Positions 2,355-31,840 of a stretch of 64,000 bases of DNA are shown piece after piece (position 1 is the stretch's first letter; every line of letters begins with the position of its first letter). The notes under the pieces are model-generated. The model was not told the DNA's origin. It made no database searches and saw nothing but the letters and a program-made list of their open reading frames with translations. Origin of the DNA: Escherichia coli (GTDB taxonomy: Bacteria > Pseudomonadota > Gammaproteobacteria > Enterobacterales > Enterobacteriaceae); assembly GCF_003334765.1 (NCBI RefSeq), contig NZ_QOWT01000001.1, one strand, 5' to 3'. The position numbers and the translations under genes are program-made.

Positions 2355-2920
2355 TATGTATTCCCTTGTGATTATAATCTTCATGAATATATCAATAAGT
2401 GCCGTTATCCAAAAAAAAGCACATTTGGATACTATTCTATGAAGTTCATTTTATTTTAAGGATTACATGTAACAAATGTATTTAAAAGATTTCAAAATGT
2501 TTCTAATCTATTTAATATAATTCAGAATTATGAATTCTAAATATAAATATTCATGAAAATTATAAATGTATATCAATATGTTATGAGTTGGGTGGAAACA
2601 TAGGGGGTGTCAATGATTGTTGCGCTAAACGGCTGGTGTGATCACGCGCACATTAATGAAGGCATAAAAAAAAGCCGGCATCATGCCGGCCCAAAAAATA
2701 TAAACAAGACGATAAAAGGCTAATAACGGAGGCATCATGACACAGAATAATAAAAAGGTATAATTGTAATCAGTGCTAATATATTGATTGAATGAATTAA
2801 TAAAGCCGATCTCAAAGATAAATAAAATCGCTCAAAACGATTTTTCCTGTATTCACTGCCGTTGCGCAAAAATTATCTATTTGTTCAAAAAATGAGTGAG
2901 TCTTGACTGGCTCATCCAAT

Positions 2921-3286
2921 GTGGAAAAATGTGACTTTTATCACATAATAGTACTAAGTCTGAATTTTCCGGGTTATCTCAAAATGGAATACGGTTCGAC
3001 AAAGATGGAAGAGAGACTCTCTCGCAGCCCTAGTGGCAAACTGGCTTTGTGGGCTTTCTATACATGGTGTGGCTATTTCGTCTGGGCAATGGCGCGTTAC
3101 ATCTGGGTGATGAGCCGGATCCCCGATGCCCTCGTGTCGGGATTTGAAAGCGATTTAGGCTCTACCGCGGGAAAGTGGTTAGGGGCACTGGTCGGATTTT
3201 TATTTATGGCTCTGGTCGGGGCATTGTTAGGCAGCATTGCCTGGTACACCCGACCTCGTCCCGCACGTAGCAGACGCTATGAATAA
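2921..3286 (+). CDS. yedR: small inner membrane protein YedR
   Basis: ORF track 2903..3286; hydrophobic segments; start uncertain (TTG 2903, GTG 2921 or ATG 2984). Confidence 0.6.
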   Translation: MEKCDFYHIIVLSLNFPGYLKMEYGSTKMEERLSRSPSGKLALWAFYTWCGYFVWAMARYIWVMSRIPDALVSGFESDLGSTAGKWLGALVGFLFMALVGALLGSIAWYTRPRPARSRRYE

Positions 3287-3325
3287 AAACTGCTAAGGTG
3301 GCGACTCTTTGGCAACGGAGCGCGT

Positions 3326-4021
3326 ATGGACTTACAACACTGGCAGGCACAGTTCGAAAACTGGTTGAAAAACCATCATCAGCACCAGGACGCGGCCCAT
3401 GACGTGTGTCATTTTCGCCGCGTCTGGGCTACGGCACAGAAGCTGGCGGCAGATGATGACGTCGATATGCTGGTGATTTTAACAGCCTGTTATTTTCACG
3501 ATATTGTGAGCCTGGCGAAAAATTATCCGCAAAGGCAGCGTTCTTCAATCCTGGCGGCAGAAGAGACGCGTCGCCTGCTCCGTGAAGAGTTCGTGCAATT
3601 TCCGGCGGAGAAAATCGAGGCCGTTTGTCATGCCATTGCCGCTCACAGTTTCAGCGCGCAAATCGCCCCCTTAACCACGGAAGCTAAAATCGTCCAGGAT
3701 GCGGATCGGCTGGAAGCCCTGGGGGCGATTGGCCTGGCGCGCGTGTTTGCCGTTTCAGGGGCATTGGGCGTGGCGCTGTTTGATGGCGAAGATCCGTTCG
3801 CACAGTATCGCCCGCTTGATGATAAACGCTACGCGCTGGATCATTTCCAGACTAAGTTGTTGAAGCTACCGCAAACCATGCAAACCGTAAGAGGCAAGCA
3901 GCTGGCGCAGCACAACGCGCAATTTTTAGTCGAGTTTATGGCGAAGCTCAGTGCCGAACTGGCGGGGGAGAATGAAGGTGTCGATCACAAGGTGATAGAT
4001 GCGTTTTCACCCGCGGGCTGA
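3326..4021 (+). CDS. yedJ: HD-domain phosphohydrolase YedJ
   Basis: 231 aa ORF with HD motif (CYFHDIV...DADRLEALG). Confidence 0.85.
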
Positions 4022-4087
4022 GCGCGTGGCCCTAAATGGCTGTAATTATGTTAACCTGTCGACCATCTCAGATGGCCGGTTAAATCT

Positions 4088-5506
4088 ATGCAGGAAAATA
4101 TATCAGTAACCGATTCATACAGCACCGGGAATGCCGCACAGGCAATGCTGGAGAAACTGCTGCAAATTTATGATGTTAAAACGCTGGTGGCTCAGCTTAA
4201 TGGTGTGGGTGAGAATCACTGGAGCGCGGCAATTTTAAAACGTGCGCTGGCGAATGACTCGGCATGGCACCGTTTAAGTGAGAAAGAGTTCGCCCATCTG
4301 CAAACGTTGTTACCCAAACCACCGGCACATCATCCGCATTATGCGTTTCGCTTTATCGATCTATTTGCCGGAATTGGCGGCATCCGTCGCGGTTTTGAAT
4401 CGATTGGCGGACAGTGCGTGTTTACCAGCGAATGGAACAAACATGCGGTACGCACTTATAAAGCCAATCATTATTGCGACCCGGCGACGCATCATTTTAA
4501 TGAAGATATCCGCGACATCACCCTCAGCCATAAAGAAGGCGTGAGTGATGAGGCGGCGGCGGAACATATTCGTCAACACATTCCTGAACACGATGTTTTA
4601 CTGGCCGGTTTCCCTTGTCAGCCATTTTCGCTGGCTGGCGTATCGAAAAAGAACTCGCTCGGGCGGGCGCACGGTTTTGCCTGCGATACTCAGGGCACGC
4701 TGTTCTTTGATGTGGTGCGCATTATCGACGCGCGTCGTCCGGCGATGTTTGTGCTCGAAAACGTCAAAAACCTGAAAAGCCACGACCAGGGTAAAACGTT
4801 CCGCATCATCATGCAGACGCTGGACGAACTGGGCTATGACGTGGCTGATGCAGAAGATAACGGGCCGGACGATCCGAAAATCATCGATGGTAAACATTTT
4901 CTGCCGCAGCACCGTGAACGCATCGTGCTGGTGGGTTTTCGTCGCGATCTTAACCTGAAAGCCGATTTTACTCTGCGTGATATCAGCGGATGTTTCCCTG
5001 CGCAGCGAGTGACGCTGGCGCAGCTGCTGGACCCGATGGTCGAGGCGAAATATATCCTGACGCCGGTACTGTGGAAGTACCTCTATCGATATGCGAAAAA
5101 ACATCAGGCGCGCGGTAACGGCTTCGGTTATGGAATGGTTTATCCGAACAATCCGCAAAGCGTCACCCGTACGCTGTCTGCGCGTTATTACAAAGATGGC
5201 GCGGAAATTTTAATCGATCGCGGATGGGATATGGCCACGGGTGAAAAAGACTTTGACGATCCGCTGAATCAGCAACATCGTCCACGTCGGTTAACGCCTC
5301 GGGAATGCGCGCGCTTAATGGGTTTTGAAGCGCCGGGAGAAGCGAAATTCCGCATTCCGGTTTCGGACACTCAGGCCTATCGCCAGTTCGGTAACTCGGT
5401 GGTCGTGCCGGTCTTTGCCGCGGTGGCAAAACTGCTTGAGCCAAAAATCAAACAGGCGGTGGCGTTGCGTCAGCAAGAGGCACAACATGGCCGATGTTCA
5501 CGATAA
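4088..5506 (+). CDS. dcm: DNA-cytosine C5 methyltransferase Dcm
   Basis: 472 aa ORF with C5-MTase motifs ([17 protein letters not shown]). Confidence 0.93.
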
Positions 5507-19853: not shown

Positions 19854-23178
<3,325 letters not shown>

Positions 23179-23392
23179 CGCGCACCTCGTGGCTGATTAT
23201 GGACGGCGTTATTGGCAAAGTGGAACAAGACTCACTCCCGGGTCAGCAAACTCGAAAAATTGACGCTCCCATTATTTGTGCTTTCGTTTTTTTCTATCCG
23301 CCAATAAACCCGTTTTTTTGTTGCTATTTAGCGCCTTTGTCTTATTGACTTACTGGTAGGCTTTGCTACCAGAAATTATCCGGGAGATGAAA

Positions 23393-23707
23393 ATGTCAGC
23401 GATACAGGGGATTGAAGGGGTTATCAGCCAGTTACAGACCACGGCGATGAGTGCGCGTGCGCAGGAATCACTGCCGCAACCGACAATTAGTTTTGCCGGG
23501 CAGCTGCACGCCGCGCTCGATCGCATAAGCGATACACAAACAGCCGCCCGCACGCAGGCAGAAAAATTCACCCTCGGTGAGCCCGGCGTGGCGCTAAACG
23601 ATGTGATGACCGATATGCAAAAAGCCTCAGTTTCTATGCAAATGGGGATTCAGGTGCGTAATAAGCTGGTGGCGGCGTATCAGGAAGTGATGTCCATGCA
23701 GGTGTAG
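23393..23707 (+). CDS. fliE: flagellar hook-basal body protein FliE
   Basis: ORF track 23363..23707; start at ATG 23393 giving [15 protein letters not shown]...; divergent from fliF. Confidence 0.9.
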
Positions 23708-24050
23708 GTTTTGTAACCTGTTGACTATGCTTGTTTATTATATCCGATCCCACAGCGTGGGGCATGGATGGGGCAAACTCACTCAATTTCTGGTTTAAAA
23801 TGGATACCTGATCCTGAAAGTTTTCTGCCATCCACGATCCGTAAACGCGATAACATGTTTTGTCTTCGCTTTGCTCCCAGGAAGAGTGAACTCATTCGTT
23901 AGCCTGGGGTTCCTTCTGATCATTATTGTTCCTGCCTTTATCTCTTGCCACGCCAGAGCCCCCTGGATACACATACACCAGGATGAAAACGGTGAGTTGT
24001 GTTCAAACTGTAGTACAATTCTCTCCAGTATGAACAGGAAAGAATATGCT

Positions 24051-24383
24051 ATGAACCCTTATATTTATCTTGGTGGCGCAATACTTGCAGAGGTCATTGG
24101 TACAACCTTAATGAAGTTTTCAGAGGGGTTTACACGGTTATGGCCCTCTGTTGGCACAATTATTTGCTATTGTGCATCATTCTGGTTATTAGCTCAGACG
24201 CTGGCTTATATACCTACAGGGATTGCTTATGCTATCTGGTCAGGCGTCGGTATCGTTCTGATTAGTTTGCTTTCCTGGGGATTTTTTGGTCAACGACTGG
24301 ACCTGCCAGCTATCATAGGCATGATGTTGATTTGTGCCGGTGTGTTAGTCATTAACTTGTTGTCACGAAGTGCACCGCATTAA
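24051..24383 (+). CDS. emrE: SMR-family multidrug efflux transporter EmrE
   Basis: ORF track 23871..24383; internal ATG 24051 gives 110 aa MNPYIYLGGAILAEVIGTTLMKFSEGFTRLWPSVG... with four TM segments. Confidence 0.85.
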   Translation: MNPYIYLGGAILAEVIGTTLMKFSEGFTRLWPSVGTIICYCASFWLLAQTLAYIPTGIAYAIWSGVGIVLISLLSWGFFGQRLDLPAIIGMMLICAGVLVINLLSRSAPH

Positions 24384-24551
24384 AAAATAATTATCCTTGA
24401 GATAACAGGAATCTGATTTGTGCATATTATGGCTAATGTTCGGGGCACCTTTATAATTATGATTGCATTTGCGCGATCATTGCGCCTTTATGCATAATGA
24501 GATCAAGGCACATCAAATAAAATAACGATAGGTCACAACAATGAGGTTTTT

Positions 24552-25103
24552 ATGAAAAAACTTATCGTTTCAAGTGTATTGGCATTCATAACATTTTCTG
24601 CGCAGGCCGCAGCATTTCAGGTCACTAGTAATGAAATAAAAACAGGAGAGCAACTTACAACGTCTCATGTATTTTCTGGATTTGGGTGTGAAGGTGGTAA
24701 TACATCGCCCTCATTAACCTGGTCTGGTGCTCCTGAAGGCACCAAAAGCTTTGCCGTAACTGTGTATGATCCAGATGCTCCTACAGGCAGTGGATGGTGG
24801 CACTGGACTGTTGCTAATATTCCAGCAACTGTAACATATTTGCCCGCTGATGCAGGAAGACGTGATGGTACAAAACTTCCGACTGGTGCTGTTCAAGGCC
24901 GAAATGATTTTGGTTATGCAGGATTTGGTGGAGCATGTCCTCCCAAAGGAGATAAACCCCATCATTACCAGTTTAAAGTATGGGCTCTAAAAACTGATAA
25001 AATTCCTGTGGATTCTAATTCCAGCGGAGCGTTAGTTGGTTATATGCTTAATGCCAATAAAATTGCAACCGCTGAGATAACACCAGTTTATGAGATAAAG
25101 TAG
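24552..25103 (+). CDS. ybcL: periplasmic PEBP/RKIP-family protein YbcL
   Basis: 183 aa ORF with signal peptide and PEBP-like motifs (VYDPDAP..., GDKPHHYQFKVWAL). Confidence 0.8.
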   Translation: MKKLIVSSVLAFITFSAQAAAFQVTSNEIKTGEQLTTSHVFSGFGCEGGNTSPSLTWSGAPEGTKSFAVTVYDPDAPTGSGWWHWTVANIPATVTYLPADAGRRDGTKLPTGAVQGRNDFGYAGFGGACPPKGDKPHHYQFKVWALKTDKIPVDSNSSGALVGYMLNANKIATAEITPVYEIK

Positions 25104-25112
25104 GGTAAGAGT

Positions 25113-25910
25113 ATGCTGGCAAAAGATAAGACTAACCTAAAGATTGAAGAAATACGGATGCATAAACATCATGAGATTCACAGGGTTAAGCCTCTTATGC
25201 CAGCTTTATGTCGTATCCGTCAGGGAAAAAAAGTTATCAATTGGGAGACGCATAGTCTAACTGTTGATAATAATCAGATAATATTATTTCCCTGTGGATA
25301 TGAATTTTATATTGCGAATTATCCAGAAGCAGGTCTTTATCTTGCAGAAATGCTTTATTATCCCATTGATCTAATTGAAAAGTTTCAAAAATTTTATGCG
25401 ATAACTGATCAAATTCGTAACACGACAGGTTTCTGCTTACCTCAGAACCCCGAGTTAATATATTGTTGGGAGCAACTAAAAACATCTATTTCCCGAGGCT
25501 TCTCAACGCAAATTCAGGAACACTTAGCAATGGGCGTTCTACTTTCATTAGGAGCACATCATGTTAATTGTTTACTTTTATCAGATAGTAAACAATCATT
25601 AATAAGTCGTTGTTATAACCTAATGCTATCCGAACCTGGAACAAAATGGACAGCAAACAAGGTAGCGAGATATCTCTACATTTCTGTTTCCACATTGCAT
25701 CGCCGTCTGGCAAGCGAGGGAGTAAGTTTTCAAAGTATATTGGACGACGTGAGGTTAAATAATGCGTTGTCTGCTATACAAACGACAGTAAAACCCATCA
25801 GCGAGATTGCCAGGGAAAATGGTTACAAGTGTCCTTCTCGTTTTACTGAAAGGTTCCATAATCGTTTTAAGATAACACCAAGAGAGCTAAGAAAAGCGTC
25901 CAGAGAGTAA
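25113..25910 (+). CDS. ybcM: AraC-family transcriptional regulator YbcM-like
   Basis: 265 aa ORF with C-terminal AraC-type HTH; very AT-rich. Confidence 0.75.
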
Positions 25911-26066
25911 AAGTATTTTATGAAGGAGCAACAGCATCGATTTTTATTTTGGAAAATAAATACGGCATACTCAACCTATTGGAGTCTGAACAATCCGGTG
26001 ACTTCTGCGCTAATCGGGGACGTTTCTAAGCACATATAATTGATACTATCTTCCTCCATCACAATT

Positions 26067-26591
26067 TCAGAAATGCACGTGTGATTTTTTTGCATCCGGC
26101 GTTTGGACTATGTGGAGCTCAAGAGTGGGAAAGTTACAAGAGGTTGAGGGGATAATTAAAGGGATGCTTATGACATTAGATATCCGGTTAGGTGCGGATA
26201 TCGTTGTTATTAAATCTAGTTGATACGTTAAGATGCAGCTACTGACAAAATAGCCAGGACTCCACAAAACGCCTTTGTCGTAATACCTGACTGCAATATC
26301 TGGTCGATCTCGTCGCAGTAACCTACTCGATACGCCTTTGAGGCTGTTTACCAGACTGGATATCGCCAGTTTGGGAGGATAGTTAATTAACAAATGGACG
26401 TGATCTGGTCCGCCATCCATTTCAACCCGTTCAGCTTCAAAATCAGCACATACATTTGAAAAGTAAGTGCGTAGTTTTTCTGTCGCGTCATGGTCAAAAA
26501 TCTGACGTCGGTATTTAGTAACGAAGACTAGGTGAACATGCTTCAGGAAAACACAATGCCTTCCGCGTCGGATATCGGTTTCTTTTTTCAT
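26067..26591 (-). CDS. tnpA: IS200/IS605-family transposase TnpA (HuH Y1), possibly 3'-altered
   Basis: ORF track 26067..26636; MKKETDIRRGRHCVFLKHVHLVFVTKYRR... with HuH motif HVHLL; C-terminal tail is low-complexity and longer than typical TnpA. Confidence 0.7.
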   Translation of the reverse strand: MKKETDIRRGRHCVFLKHVHLVFVTKYRRQIFDHDATEKLRTYFSNVCADFEAERVEMDGGPDHVHLLINYPPKLAISSLVNSLKGVSSRLLRRDRPDIAVRYYDKGVLWSPGYFVSSCILTYQLDLITTISAPNRISNVISIPLIIPSTSCNFPTLELHIVQTPDAKKSHVHF

Positions 26592-26905
26592 AGGCCAAAG
26601 TATGATTTGGCCCATGAAACGACTACAGGCATTCAAATTCCGGTTAAGACCAGGTGGTCAACAGGAGCGTGAAATGAGGCGCTTCGCAGGCGCATGTCGT
26701 TTCGTTTTCAATCGTGCTCTGGCGCTTCAGAATGAGAATCATGAGGCCGGTAATAAATACATCCCTTACGGGAAAATGGCTTCCTGGTTGGTTGAGTGGA
26801 AAAATGCCACTGAAACGCAATGGCTTAAAGATTCGCCCTCACAGCCATTGCAACAGTCACTGAAAGACCCTGAGCGGGCTTACAAAAACTTCTTCCGGCT
26901 TCGTC
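26067..26905. mobile_element. degenerate IS200/IS605-family insertion sequence (tnpA plus 5' fragment of tnpB)
   Basis: Divergent tnpA / tnpB start codons about 25 bp apart; tnpB homology ends after about 95 codons; exact ends not determined. Confidence 0.6.
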
Positions 26906-26943
26906 ACCACGCTCAAACGGTGTGCTACCTATCGCGGCTATAA
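26614..26943 (+). pseudogene. tnpB: TnpB (OrfB) N-terminal fragment
   Basis: ORF track 26602..26943; MKRLQAFKFRLRPGGQQEREMRRFAGACRFVFNRAL... matches TnpB N-termini for about 95 aa, then an unrelated tail and stop. Confidence 0.7.
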
Positions 26944-27322
26944 AAACAGCTTGTCCATCAGCACGATAGATAAAATAAGGCTGCTTTTTGTCGCCTTCTT
27001 TTTTCCACTCAAACCAGCCATCGGCAAAACAGATTGCCCGACCATGTTGCCAGAGCGGTTTAAACATGTGACTGGTTGCGGCAGTTTCTACGCGGGCGTT
27101 AATCAGCGGCGGTTTATCCCACCATCCGGGAGCATATCCCCAGAAAACCGGATCCAGATGAAGGTGTTCATCACGTTCACTGAGCAGAAGGACTTTGGTT
27201 CCCGGCGCGACGTTGTATCTGCCAATAGGTTCGGGATCGTAGGGAATATCGCGTTCAATATCTTCCGCGAGAAGCGCAAGGTAATCTTCACGCGTTTGGG
27301 ATTGGGCAAAGCGTCCACACAT
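26825..27322 (-). pseudogene. yedK: SOS-response associated peptidase YedK, 3'-truncated and fused to IS sequence
   Basis: 165 aa ORF MCGRFAQSQTREDYLALLAEDIERDIPYDPEP... is shorter than the 222 aa I recall for full-length YedK; its 3' part overlaps the tnpB fragment on the opposite strand. Confidence 0.7.
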
Positions 27323-27430
27323 AGAAACCTCCTGAGGTCACACTGAAAAGAATAGGAGAGGGGGCGGGTTAAATCTATGTGATAGAGAGGCAACGATATT
27401 CCCGCTGTGGGCCACAGCGGGAATGAGGGA

Positions 27431-27664
27431 TTACTTCTGAATTAAATAACGAATGGTCGGCCCGTCTTGCTGAATATCCAGCACCGTATAGCCGTGATTA
27501 CGCGCATCCAGTGGAATATTATTGATCGACTGCGGACAGTCGCTCACCACTTCCAGGATCTCCCCTTTTTTTAACTGCGGCATCGCCTCAAGGGTTGCGA
27601 CTGCCGGATAAGGGCAGGGTTCACCCACCATATCAAGACGGTAATCAGGAACGATATTTTTCAT
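27431..27664 (-). CDS. yedF: TusA-like sulfurtransferase YedF
   Basis: 77 aa ORF with CPxP motif (GEPCPYP). Confidence 0.88.
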   Translation of the reverse strand: MKNIVPDYRLDMVGEPCPYPAVATLEAMPQLKKGEILEVVSDCPQSINNIPLDARNHGYTVLDIQQDGPTIRYLIQK

Positions 27665-28866
27665 GCGATCTCCTTAGCAGTCTGCGGTGCCGCACGGCGG
27701 AAGAAGCGTTTTTCCCAGCCAATAATCAACATTAGAGCAGCAAACAACAGCAAATATGTCACCAGCAGGCCGCCCATCGGGCCAAAGGTTTTCAGCAGGT
27801 TGATTTTGTCCCAGTCGGTGGCCAGCGCCGGAGCGAAATCATCCCAGTAGTACGCCAGAATCGTTGAGCCGATCACGTTGCCCAGACCGACCCACCAGTA
27901 GTGCACCTGGCCTTCTACCGCGCGGTACATCCAGCCGGTTTCGCAGCCGCCTGCCAGCACGATGCCAAAACCAAACAGTAAACCACCAATTACCGCGTTT
28001 GGTCCCGCCCACATGATTTTGGGTTCAACGCCTAACTGTACGTAACTGAAGATCCCGATGGCACTTACCGCCATACCGATAATGATTGCTTTCGCCATAT
28101 GGGTACGTCCGGTGATCCACATATCGCGGAACGCCGAAGTAAAGCAGATTTGCGCACGTTCAATCAGTAAACCAAAGCCGACGCCAAACAGCATTGCCAG
28201 CCCCAGTTTGGGCTGGTTCATCGCCGTCAGCAGCGCCCAGCCCAGCAGGCCGAAAAAGACCAGCATCCCGAGACGAAAACGACGCCGCGCCTGATCCGGT
28301 TTTTGCGTCAACGGTGAGGCAGCAGAAACTTTCTGCATTTTCACGGGAATACGGAAGATGGGCAGAAGGGTAAAGCGCGCGCCAAACCATGAACCAATGG
28401 CAGTGGCGATGGCAAAGAACCAGGCGTGCAGCGAGAACTGTGGAATTCCGGTAAAGAACGCCGCCAGGTTACAGCCCATTGCCAGACGTGCGCCAAAACC
28501 GGCGATAATACCGCCAATGATGGCCTGCATAATGCGGATACGGCTGCGCGGCATGCGCAGTTTGACATTGTTGGCCCACAGCGCTGCGGCAAAACAGCCG
28601 CCAAACATACCGAGGATCATCATTCCGTCGATGCGGGTTAATGGCGATCCTTCCAGATGGATAATTTTAAAATAACCCCACTCTTCAGCATGGACGCCGA
28701 ACAACTGCAGGAGCTGACCGCCCCAACGGGTAAATTCACCTGTGACAGCCCAAAAGGTGCCAGTGATGCCAAAATAGTAAGTGGAGAGAATACCCGCCGC
28801 GATGACCGCGGGGATGGGCGCCCAGAATTTAATCAACCAGGCGTGTTTGAATTGCTGCCATGACAT
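27661..28866 (-). CDS. yedE: inner membrane transporter YedE (selenium/sulfur-compound transport family)
   Basis: 401 aa polytopic membrane ORF overlapping yedF start. Confidence 0.88.
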   Translation of the reverse strand: MSWQQFKHAWLIKFWAPIPAVIAAGILSTYYFGITGTFWAVTGEFTRWGGQLLQLFGVHAEEWGYFKIIHLEGSPLTRIDGMMILGMFGGCFAAALWANNVKLRMPRSRIRIMQAIIGGIIAGFGARLAMGCNLAAFFTGIPQFSLHAWFFAIATAIGSWFGARFTLLPIFRIPVKMQKVSAASPLTQKPDQARRRFRLGMLVFFGLLGWALLTAMNQPKLGLAMLFGVGFGLLIERAQICFTSAFRDMWITGRTHMAKAIIIGMAVSAIGIFSYVQLGVEPKIMWAGPNAVIGGLLFGFGIVLAGGCETGWMYRAVEGQVHYWWVGLGNVIGSTILAYYWDDFAPALATDWDKINLLKTFGPMGGLLVTYLLLFAALMLIIGWEKRFFRRAAPQTAKEIA

Positions 28867-29049
28867 GAATGTAGCCTCTGAACTCAGAAGGTTTGAAACA
28901 AGAGTCGCGAATCATACACCATGCAAATTTATTTTCGGGGTAATAATTCACAAAAATAATGGTTAGATCAAATTTCTCTCTGAACCTGGAAAGGCTGGCG
29001 ACATCAGGGCTTTAATGCCACAATCCTCTTTTCTTCTCATGCAGGACGA

Positions 29050-29466
29050 ATGATGAAAAAACTCGCAATTGCAGGTGCGCTCATGTTGCTGGCGGGCTGT
29101 GCCGAAGTCGAAAACTATAACAATGTCGTGAAAACCCCCGCGCCGGACTGGCTGGCGGGCTACTGGCAGACCAAAGGGCCGCAACGTGCGTTGGTCAGTC
29201 CGGAAGCGATAGGCAGCCTCATTGTCACTAAAGAGGGCGATACCCTGGATTGCCGTCAGTGGCAGCGGGTGATTGCCGTGCCGGGTAAGTTGACATTGAT
29301 GTCTGATGATCTCACTAACGTTACCGTAAAACGTGAGCTGTACGAGGTTGAGCGTGACGGTAACACCATTGAGTACGATGGTATGACGATGGAGCGTGTG
29401 GATCGCCCGACGGCAGAGTGTGCCGCCGCGCTGGATAAAGCGCCGTTACCGACGCCACTGCCGTAA
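29050..29466 (+). CDS. yedD: lipoprotein YedD
   Basis: 138 aa ORF with lipobox LLAGC. Confidence 0.85.
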   Translation: MMKKLAIAGALMLLAGCAEVENYNNVVKTPAPDWLAGYWQTKGPQRALVSPEAIGSLIVTKEGDTLDCRQWQRVIAVPGKLTLMSDDLTNVTVKRELYEVERDGNTIEYDGMTMERVDRPTAECAAALDKAPLPTPLP

Positions 29467-29499
29467 TGAAATCTCCCCGGCTTGCCGCCGGGGATGGAT

Positions 29500-30987
29500 T
29501 TAAATCACCTCTTCGATAACCCACACGCTGACGCTGCCGCCGTTGCAAAAGAAGGTCGCTTCGCCGTTTTCGTCTGTCACTACGCTCTCTTGCCGGTTCC
29601 CCAGAAAATCACGCCAGGTTTTATTGCCGTAATTCTCTCCCAGATGAATGGTTTTTTCGCCATCATCTCCGTTCGACATGACCACCACGCAGCCGGGATA
29701 TTCGTCGGTGCCACTGCGGCTAAAGGCAATGCAGTTCGGATGGTCGAAAAATAACGTCTGTACACCGTGGGCGAAACGCTGACGGGCGAGAATTAACTCA
29801 TCAAGCTGTTCGATTATTGGCATATCTATCGGATAGGTTTGCCCGTCACCACCGACATCTTCGTAATGTGCACCGTAGAGGTCCGGATAGAACACCGAAG
29901 GAACGCCATTTTCCCGCAACAAAATTAAGGCATACGCCAGCGGTTTAAACCACGGTTCGACGGGGGCTTCGAGGGCTTGCAACGGTTGGGTGTCGTGGTT
30001 GGCAACGAGGGTTACGGCGTGAAAAGGATCGGCTTCCACCAGCGTCCCAGTGAAGATCTGCGTCATGTCGTAGTCGCGACCCATGCGCGATGCTTCATGG
30101 AATTTCATCTGCAGCGGCGCATCAAACAGCATGGTTTTGCCTTCCACCTGATCAATATACGTTTGCAGTTTATCGACTTCATGCGACCAGTATTCAGCCA
30201 CAATAAACAACGGCTTTGGCGCAACTTCCTGTACGTGTTCGATCCACTCTTTATAAAACCATGCCGGAATATGTTTGACCGCATCAAGACGAAAGCCGTC
30301 GCATTGCGTTTGTTCCATCACCCAGCGCGCCCAGTATTTAATCTCTTCCGTCACGGCATGATTGCGAAAATCGATATTCTCCCCCATCAGATAATCGAAA
30401 TTACCGAGTTCATCATCAACCTGATCGTTCCAGCCTTCTCCGGTATAGTCGTTAACAATTTTAAAAATGCCATCTTCATCAGGGTTTTCGATATGGTCGA
30501 TACCGCTAAAACATTTGAAATCCCAGATAAACTGCGAGTATTGCCCGGCACGAGCGGGGAAGGTGTAACGCGTCCAGCCTTCACACTCAATGATTTCTTC
30601 GTCAATTTGCGTACGGTCATCAGCATTTACACGCTGCACGCGAATAGCTTCTTTTTCATCCGCGCCCATTTTGTGGTTGACTACCACGTCCAGCAGCACC
30701 GCAATGTCATTACGTTTCAGGGCGTCAATGGCGGCCAGCAGTTGTGCTTTATCACCATATTTAGTAGGGATGCTGCCTTTCTGATCAAACTCACCTAGAT
30801 CAAATAAATCATAGGAGTCGTAGCCGACCGAATAGCCGCCCGATGCGCCTTTATAGGCGGGCGGCAACCAGACCATATTGATACCAATATCATTAAAACC
30901 GTCTGCGCGCTCGGCCAGTTCAGGCCAGAGCTTACCGCCTTCCGGGTAATACCAGTGAAAACATTGTAACAGCGTGGGATTACGCAT
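29500..30987 (-). CDS. amyA: cytoplasmic alpha-amylase AmyA
   Basis: 495 aa GH13 [24 protein letters not shown]... Confidence 0.9.
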
Positions 30988-31064
30988 TCTTCGACTCCAT
31001 TCAAGGGGAATATTAGAAGCGTAGCCGTAATCGGATTATTCGCGAGCCATCGGCTCATTAAGAT

Positions 31065-31430
31065 TCAAAAGAGGTTATCCTGCGGAGCCAGCACAAAGCC
31101 GCCCTGATCGCCATAGGCACTTAACACCGATTTTTGCACCGATGACTGACCGACCAGTTTCGCCAGTTCATCCATCCGAATCTGTAATAACTGTTTTACC
31201 TTGCTTTCGTTGTCGAGAATCAGGCGCAGCATCGGGCGGAGCTGCTCCTGCATCGTAGTGGACGGGGCAACCTCTTCAGTCAGGTGTGCGATCTCCTGCA
31301 CCGCATTCACATACGCCATTTCGCTGGCGATGAGTTCGTCCCATTGTTCTTCCGTTGCCAGGCGTAACATGAGCTGGCTTTTTTCGACGAGTTGTTGCCA
31401 GGCGAAATACAAATGCGGTGCATTGTTCAT
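31065..31430 (-). CDS. fliT: flagellar export chaperone / anti-FlhDC factor FliT
   Basis: 121 aa ORF. Confidence 0.88.
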
Positions 31431-31840
31431 CAGACTGGGTCCTGAATCAAAGAAGGGGAGAGTAAAGACTCTTTCCAGGCATCGGCAATATTGCGCATTA
31501 ATGCTTCCACTTCTTCGACTGCGGAGACATCGTTACGTAAATTGGCTTGCAGCAAGCGCCTGACCATATAGCTATAAAGAGCAATCAAGTTTTGGGTTAA
31601 TTCGTCTTTGCTATCTTCATCAAGACTCACCCGCAGTCCGTTCTCAATGATGTTGATCGCTTTTGACAAAGAGACGCCTTTGCCTTGCTGATTGTTGTCC
31701 TGCATAAACAGGCGCGCTCTAACCAGTGCGCTCAGCACTCCATCAAATAGCATGGTGACCAGCTGCTGCTGGCTGGCGCTCATTACGGCGCTTTCGACGC
31801 CAATTTGTGCATAGGCTTTTGAGCCGCTCGCGGTATACAT
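31430..31840 (-). CDS. fliS: flagellin-specific chaperone FliS
   Basis: 136 aa ORF. Confidence 0.9.

Follow-up and report, generated by a model that had tools for sequence, protein, structure and literature searches.

We found with high confidence that the minus-strand gene yedK in the window, the whole stretch of 64,000 nucleotides of Escherichia coli DNA analysed here, is a fossil pseudogene made by deletion: in the precursor state an IS element stood at its stop codon, relative to that state 1,111 bp and 665 bp are gone, and the product is predicted to be non-functional. Judged from the alignments, the fusion of yedK with IS sequence is a deletion junction inside two convergent genes, not an insertion junction at an IS end. 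The 1.1-kb deletion in yedK is old, and the truncated gene is an ordinary, common pseudogene, already known through annotation.

Structure of the truncated yedK locus

The open reading frame at 26825..27322 on the minus strand encodes 165 aa and begins with MCGRF, while the reference yedK of strain K-12 comprises 669 bp and 222 aa; both the SRAP-type start and the shortfall against K-12 had been pointed out in the first-pass annotation and were seen here. The frame is chimeric and consists of YedK residues 1-142, a 23-aa foreign tail and a stop. The yedK remnant (codons 1-142) occupies 26897..27322 on the minus strand, onto which the yedK pseudogene called by PGAP in another locus (L003) maps; Cys2, Pro40, Asn75, Arg77, Glu105 and Trp106 are kept, and the changes R85H and P125A are present. 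When the window frame was compared with the solved YedK structures, NCBIfam PRK09951 and Pfam SRAP, the alignment was confined to residues 1-142/143. The last 80 codons (residues 143-222) are gone from the window, in agreement with the earlier claim that the native C-terminal region is lost.

The tail GRSFCKPAQGLSVTVAMAVRANL has 23 residues without a YedK counterpart and lies at 26825-26896, antisense to the tnpB stub, where the plus strand matches IS copies through base 26896. On the plus strand, identity to tnpB extends up to 26896 and identity to yedK starts from 26897. Read in the sense of yedK, the window has ...GAC GAA GCC and, directly after the break, GGA AGA AGT..., compared with ...GAC GAA GCC GAA GGA TTT... 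in K-12, and C26896 fits both flanks (1-nt microhomology). The first-pass description of yedK as 3'-truncated and fused to IS sequence was thus borne out, since YedK ends after codon 142 and antisense tnpB follows. It had placed the last 25 or so codons opposite the TnpB stub and expected the divergence at 26900-26910; the location of the tail was right and its length is 23 codons, and the breakpoint lies close to the expected range, a few bases to its left.

The yedK 3' end, yedL and yedN gave nothing above noise in blastn and tblastn searches of the window. A simple scan of 26000-27700 returned no sigma-70 promoter. A terminator-like hairpin at 26824-26806 on the minus strand lies directly beyond the new stop and was given no weight, because the number of such hairpins, four where 1.8 would be expected, is close to chance. 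The literature search on yedK and pseudogene found no paper that treats the truncated allele.

Positions 20149-23854 of the window match K-12 from fliH to just beyond fliE, and 26885-31816 match K-12 from the yedK 5' part through fliS. Between these blocks the window holds 3,030 bp in place of the 2,305 bp of K-12 (yedN', yedL and the yedK 3' end). The replacement is composed of emrE (24051-24383), ybcL (24552-25103) and ybcM (25113-25910), all on the plus strand, a short spacer and an IS remnant. The three genes belong to a prophage-derived module (23975..26117, plus strand) which replaces yedN'-yedL, is about 90% identical to the cryptic prophage DLP12 of K-12 and continues after ybcM into a ylcH-like start. 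Upstream of yedK, yedF (27431-27664) and yedE (27661-28866), both on the minus strand, are intact and collinear with K-12. B2-type strains also retain a prophage-type porin gene between fliE and yedK (L016, 2174-3256).

The IS remnant, the precursor locus and the two deletions

The IS sequence beside yedK is an internal remnant of 662 bp (26235..26896) of an IS609-like element of the IS200/IS605 family, IS609 being the name we assume for it. The match to plasmid and chromosomal IS copies is sharply bounded at these positions. Intact relatives are 1,752 bp long, with tnpA (138 aa) and tnpB (402 aa; insQ as annotated in the matched genomes) in divergent orientation, for example in L005 and in L006 (positions 2380-4131). 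The first plasmid IS copy (L004) was rejected as an intact reference, being truncated itself.

The tnpA remnant retains 119 of 138 codons at 26235..26591 on the minus strand, from where an open frame reaches 26067. The HUH motif (HVHLL) is present, but other sequence stands in place of the final 19 residues, RQYIEQQ among them, leaving an incomplete Y1 transposase; in this family the lost C-terminal segment GGAPISIIRQYIEQQ carries the catalytic tyrosine. The tnpB stub keeps about 94 of 402 codons at 26614..26896 on the plus strand, lacks the RuvC and Zn-finger parts of a full-length TnpB, and lies in a frame (26602 or 26614 to 26943) that continues antisense through yedK. The left and right ends typical of IS200/IS605 elements, with their subterminal hairpins, are both absent, and no Rfam family, IS200/IS605-associated RNA included, was detected in 25800-27700 at E ≤ 1. 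Because both ends, the region of the TnpA catalytic tyrosine and the RuvC and Zn-finger parts of TnpB are missing, the remnant is, as judged from its sequence, dead.

The 174-aa frame annotated as tnpA (26067-26591, minus strand) is itself chimeric, with 119 native codons followed by 55 of unrelated sequence, and RefSeq lists it as an intact IS200/IS605 transposase (WP_001347174.1). The convergent chimeric frames overlap at 26825-26943, the tnpB-stub frame stopping at 26943 within yedK and the yedK frame at 26825 within tnpB; each truncated gene takes its C-terminal tail from the antisense strand of the other. In many carriers among the matches listed, the tnpA remnant is interrupted again by IS5 or IS2 (as in L001, 4623-5428), and the dead IS has thus become a target for additional insertions.

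Some genomes with a full-length yedK carry a tnpB annotated beneath the yedK 3' end. In two such precursor loci, L009 (strain PK5086) and L010, the order is fliE, emrE, ybcL, ybcM, spacer, IS left end, tnpA (pseudogene), tnpB and convergent yedK; tnpB encodes 387 aa, yedK is full-length with 223 aa, and the two genes overlap convergently by 16 bp. Aligned with the precursor, the window forms three collinear blocks that are two deletions apart. The first deletion (665 bp, L009 about 3813-4477) lies at an 8-bp microhomology, GCAGCTAC, found at its junction at 26235..26242 of the window, and the spacer, the IS left end and the tnpA 3' end are lost with it. The second (1,111 bp, L009 5132-6242) has the 1-nt microhomology and its junction at 26896..26897, where tnpB codon ~95 is joined to yedK codon 143.

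The B2-type locus L016, with emrE, ybcL, ybcM, the porin gene and a 222-aa yedK, provided the empty site. Compared with it, the precursor IS is a clean insertion 3' of TTATC, exactly at the yedK stop codon (L009 4354-6000; L016 3770), and other IS copies have TTATC or TTAC as their target, the same as or like that of the precursor. The flanks are contiguous across the insertion, which turns the end of YedK from ...QPV* into ...QPVC* and thus adds one Cys (223 aa). The right end of the precursor IS with its hairpin was lost by an internal 103-bp deletion between GTGGAG(G)GATG repeats, with the 387-aa TnpB frame kept; the 1,111-bp deletion spans the site of this loss. A deletion of the right end together with flanking DNA was considered and rejected, since in the B2-type empty site the two flanking sequences directly adjoin each other. 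Most of the porin gene is also missing from the precursor relative to L016. Since 30-32 of 662 IS sites differ between the sampled precursors and the window, the former are related to the actual ancestor but not identical with it. A 20-bp tandem duplication, CGTTGTTATTAAATCTRGTT, is found in the precursor loci (L009 3752-3791) and a single copy in the window (26202-26221), adjoining a terminator-like hairpin at 26179-26202.

These comparisons show that an IS609-like element had inserted 3' of TTATC at the yedK stop, inside a decayed DLP12-like prophage remnant between fliE and yedK. The 1,111-bp deletion then accounts for the fusion of the two convergent genes, and the 665-bp deletion for the truncation of the IS on its tnpA side. 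Both deletions probably arose through illegitimate recombination or recombination at microhomologies (of 1 nt and 8 bp, respectively) and not through transposase action. Direct transposition of the IS into yedK, splitting the gene and leaving its 3' half on the far side of the IS, would explain why IS-family sequence adjoins the break. However, the break falls within tnpB, at a distance of 1,235 bp from the right end of the element, and neither IS terminus is present; the far side of the IS holds ybcM and the prophage remnant, the window lacks the yedK 3' end that such a split would have left there, and the precursor places the original IS site at the yedK stop codon. This explanation was ruled out by the boundary alignments and retains hardly any probability.

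Distribution of the truncated allele and its functional consequence

Counts were made among 5426 complete E. coli genomes, a genome being scored when it covered at least 80% of the probe. The yedK 5' part, with the whole frame as query, was found in 5367 genomes, the exact window junction in 1111, the precursor junction in 1082 and the yedK 3' end in 4250, never with more than one copy of the latter per genome. An assembly or sequencing artefact in the window has practically no probability as the source of the junction and was ruled out, as the identical junction occurs in 1111 independent complete genomes. Carriers of the junction and of the 3' end add up to 5361, compared with 5367 genomes that have the yedK 5' part; from this near-exact partition, the missing 3' end is probably not kept elsewhere in carriers. 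The first-pass annotation had advised a search for it elsewhere in the genome, and the counts, together with its absence from the window, argue that the missing yedK 3' end, yedL and yedN are not retained elsewhere in carrier genomes.

Carriers include a strain named ST648, APEC O78:H4 isolates and JJ2434. The neighbouring yedE/yedF/fliE proteins occur among carriers in at least three different alleles. RefSeq/PGAP marks the yedK remnant as a pseudogene, while other pipelines call the 165-aa sequence a protein, which occurs in at least 1000 contigs of a public collection and bears the database name "putative SOS response-associated peptidase YedK". Homologues naturally ending at about 165 aa with the same C-terminus had been named as the observation that would speak against a truncation; the many database proteins of this length and C-terminus are copies of this one deletion allele and do not represent homologues that are short by nature. 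Independent damage to yedK was also observed, as a frameshift in strain FEA3 with a B2-type arrangement (L015, 3769-4432) and as a partial 3' fragment in strain WB61.

In the translation of the window frame, the nucleophile Cys2 directly follows the initiator Met (MCGRF) and the SRAP active-site residues Asn75 and Glu105 are present; His160 and the phosphate anchor Thr149/Arg162 are deleted, leaving the SRAP residue set incomplete. The frame scored 324.6 bits against NCBIfam PRK09951, below the curated cut-off of 349 bits, with coverage of 1-143 of 222, and matched model positions 1-138 of 214 of Pfam SRAP (PF02586), short of a complete domain. In previous studies, Thr149 and Arg162 together with Arg77 anchored the AP-site phosphate, and T149A and R162A abolished ssDNA binding; His160 acted as the general acid for ring opening, with H160A and H160Q about 10-fold slower; the pocket of the thiazolidine linkage was lined by Ile147, Thr149 and Pro164; and 3' DNA contacts were made by Arg206, Asn210 and Val211 (PMC6821365, PMC9436759). 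The roles of Asn75 and Glu105 have also been described (PMC9436759). All eight residues Ile147, Thr149, His160, Arg162, Pro164, Arg206, Asn210 and Val211 fall within the deleted 143-222 segment, and from their position in it the late strands of both the beta-barrel and the flat sheet must be lost as well.

Since the residues for ssDNA binding, the pocket and the C-terminal contacts lie in the deleted segment, the published point-mutant and structural data make loss of function of the truncated YedK very likely. The product, YedK 1-142 with 23 unrelated residues, keeps Cys2 and Glu105 and would be unable to bind ssDNA or to shield abasic sites. It is probably unstable, and it could still be made, as the start codon and the upstream region are intact. 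The earlier suggestion of a likely inactivation is supported by the lost Thr149, Arg162 and His160 and by the RefSeq pseudogene call.

Among the 7 truncated loci examined, which comprise 4 distinct sequence variants, 6 (3 of the variants) still have an open chimeric frame, a point that speaks against inactivation. Several changes found in truncated alleles are absent from the sampled full-length alleles, namely Q7* and I74V in L011, P40L at a strictly conserved residue in L012, and R85H and P125A in the group of the window. Five nonsynonymous or nonsense changes stand against two synonymous ones, an excess that is not statistically significant with 7 substitutions; the changes confined to truncated alleles fit relaxed constraint, the numbers being too small for significance.

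Alternatively, selection might maintain the truncated YedK because it still has some function, be it residual crosslinking through Cys2, a dominant-negative effect or a newly acquired role. An open frame in most sampled carriers, its presence in about 20% of complete genomes, the preserved Cys2, Asn75, Arg77 and Glu105 and the annotation of the 165-aa frame as a protein by some pipelines would be in line with this. We consider it very improbable, however, because the protein has lost Thr149 and Arg162, neither of which is dispensable for ssDNA binding, together with the C-terminal contacts and His160. In addition, codon 7 is a stop in one carrier, P40L alters a strictly conserved residue in another, and the tail is antisense tnpB sequence. 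A pseudogene made by deletion is the reading that we prefer.

Implications and comparison with known systems

Natural yedK nulls might make up about a fifth of the complete E. coli genomes, and such strains might handle ssDNA abasic sites differently, a proposal that we regard as rather unlikely. A second yedK copy was not found with nucleotide yedK probes in the complete E. coli genomes. If the proposal is true, carrier lineages would have more strand breaks or more translesion synthesis, their mutation spectrum could differ measurably, and SRAP biology would gain a ready set of natural knockouts in the carriers. Work on YedK outside K-12 should consider that about 20% of complete genomes would be without a functional copy. 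The value of the finding is mostly housekeeping, as it flags the database 165-aa "YedK" proteins as a deletion-derived pseudogene. The yedK locus also represents a clean, reconstructable case of the stepwise decay of an IS and a prophage remnant, which finally eroded an adjacent core gene.

Compared with K-12 YedK (SRAP, PF02586; PDB 2ICU, 6NUA and 6KBS; human orthologue HMCES), residues 1-142 are about 96% identical at the protein level and the gene lies at the same site downstream of yedE-yedF, whereas the window lacks 143-222 and has a 23-aa unrelated tail in addition to R85H and P125A. The divergent tnpA/tnpB layout resembles that of intact IS609-like IS200/IS605 elements, and the common 662 bp are 90-96% identical to the 1,752-bp copies; unlike these, the window has the internal 662 bp only and is without the ends, the TnpA C-terminus and the TnpB nuclease part. 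The precursor of strain PK5086 (L009) has the same emrE-ybcL-ybcM-IS island in the same order and orientation beside yedK-yedF-yedE, but possesses a 223-aa yedK, the IS left end and a 387-aa TnpB. Finally, the module shares about 90% DNA identity with K-12 DLP12 across emrE, ybcL, ybcM and the start of ylcH, whereas in the window it is located between fliE and yedK and not at argU, without ybcK or phage genes past the ylcH start.
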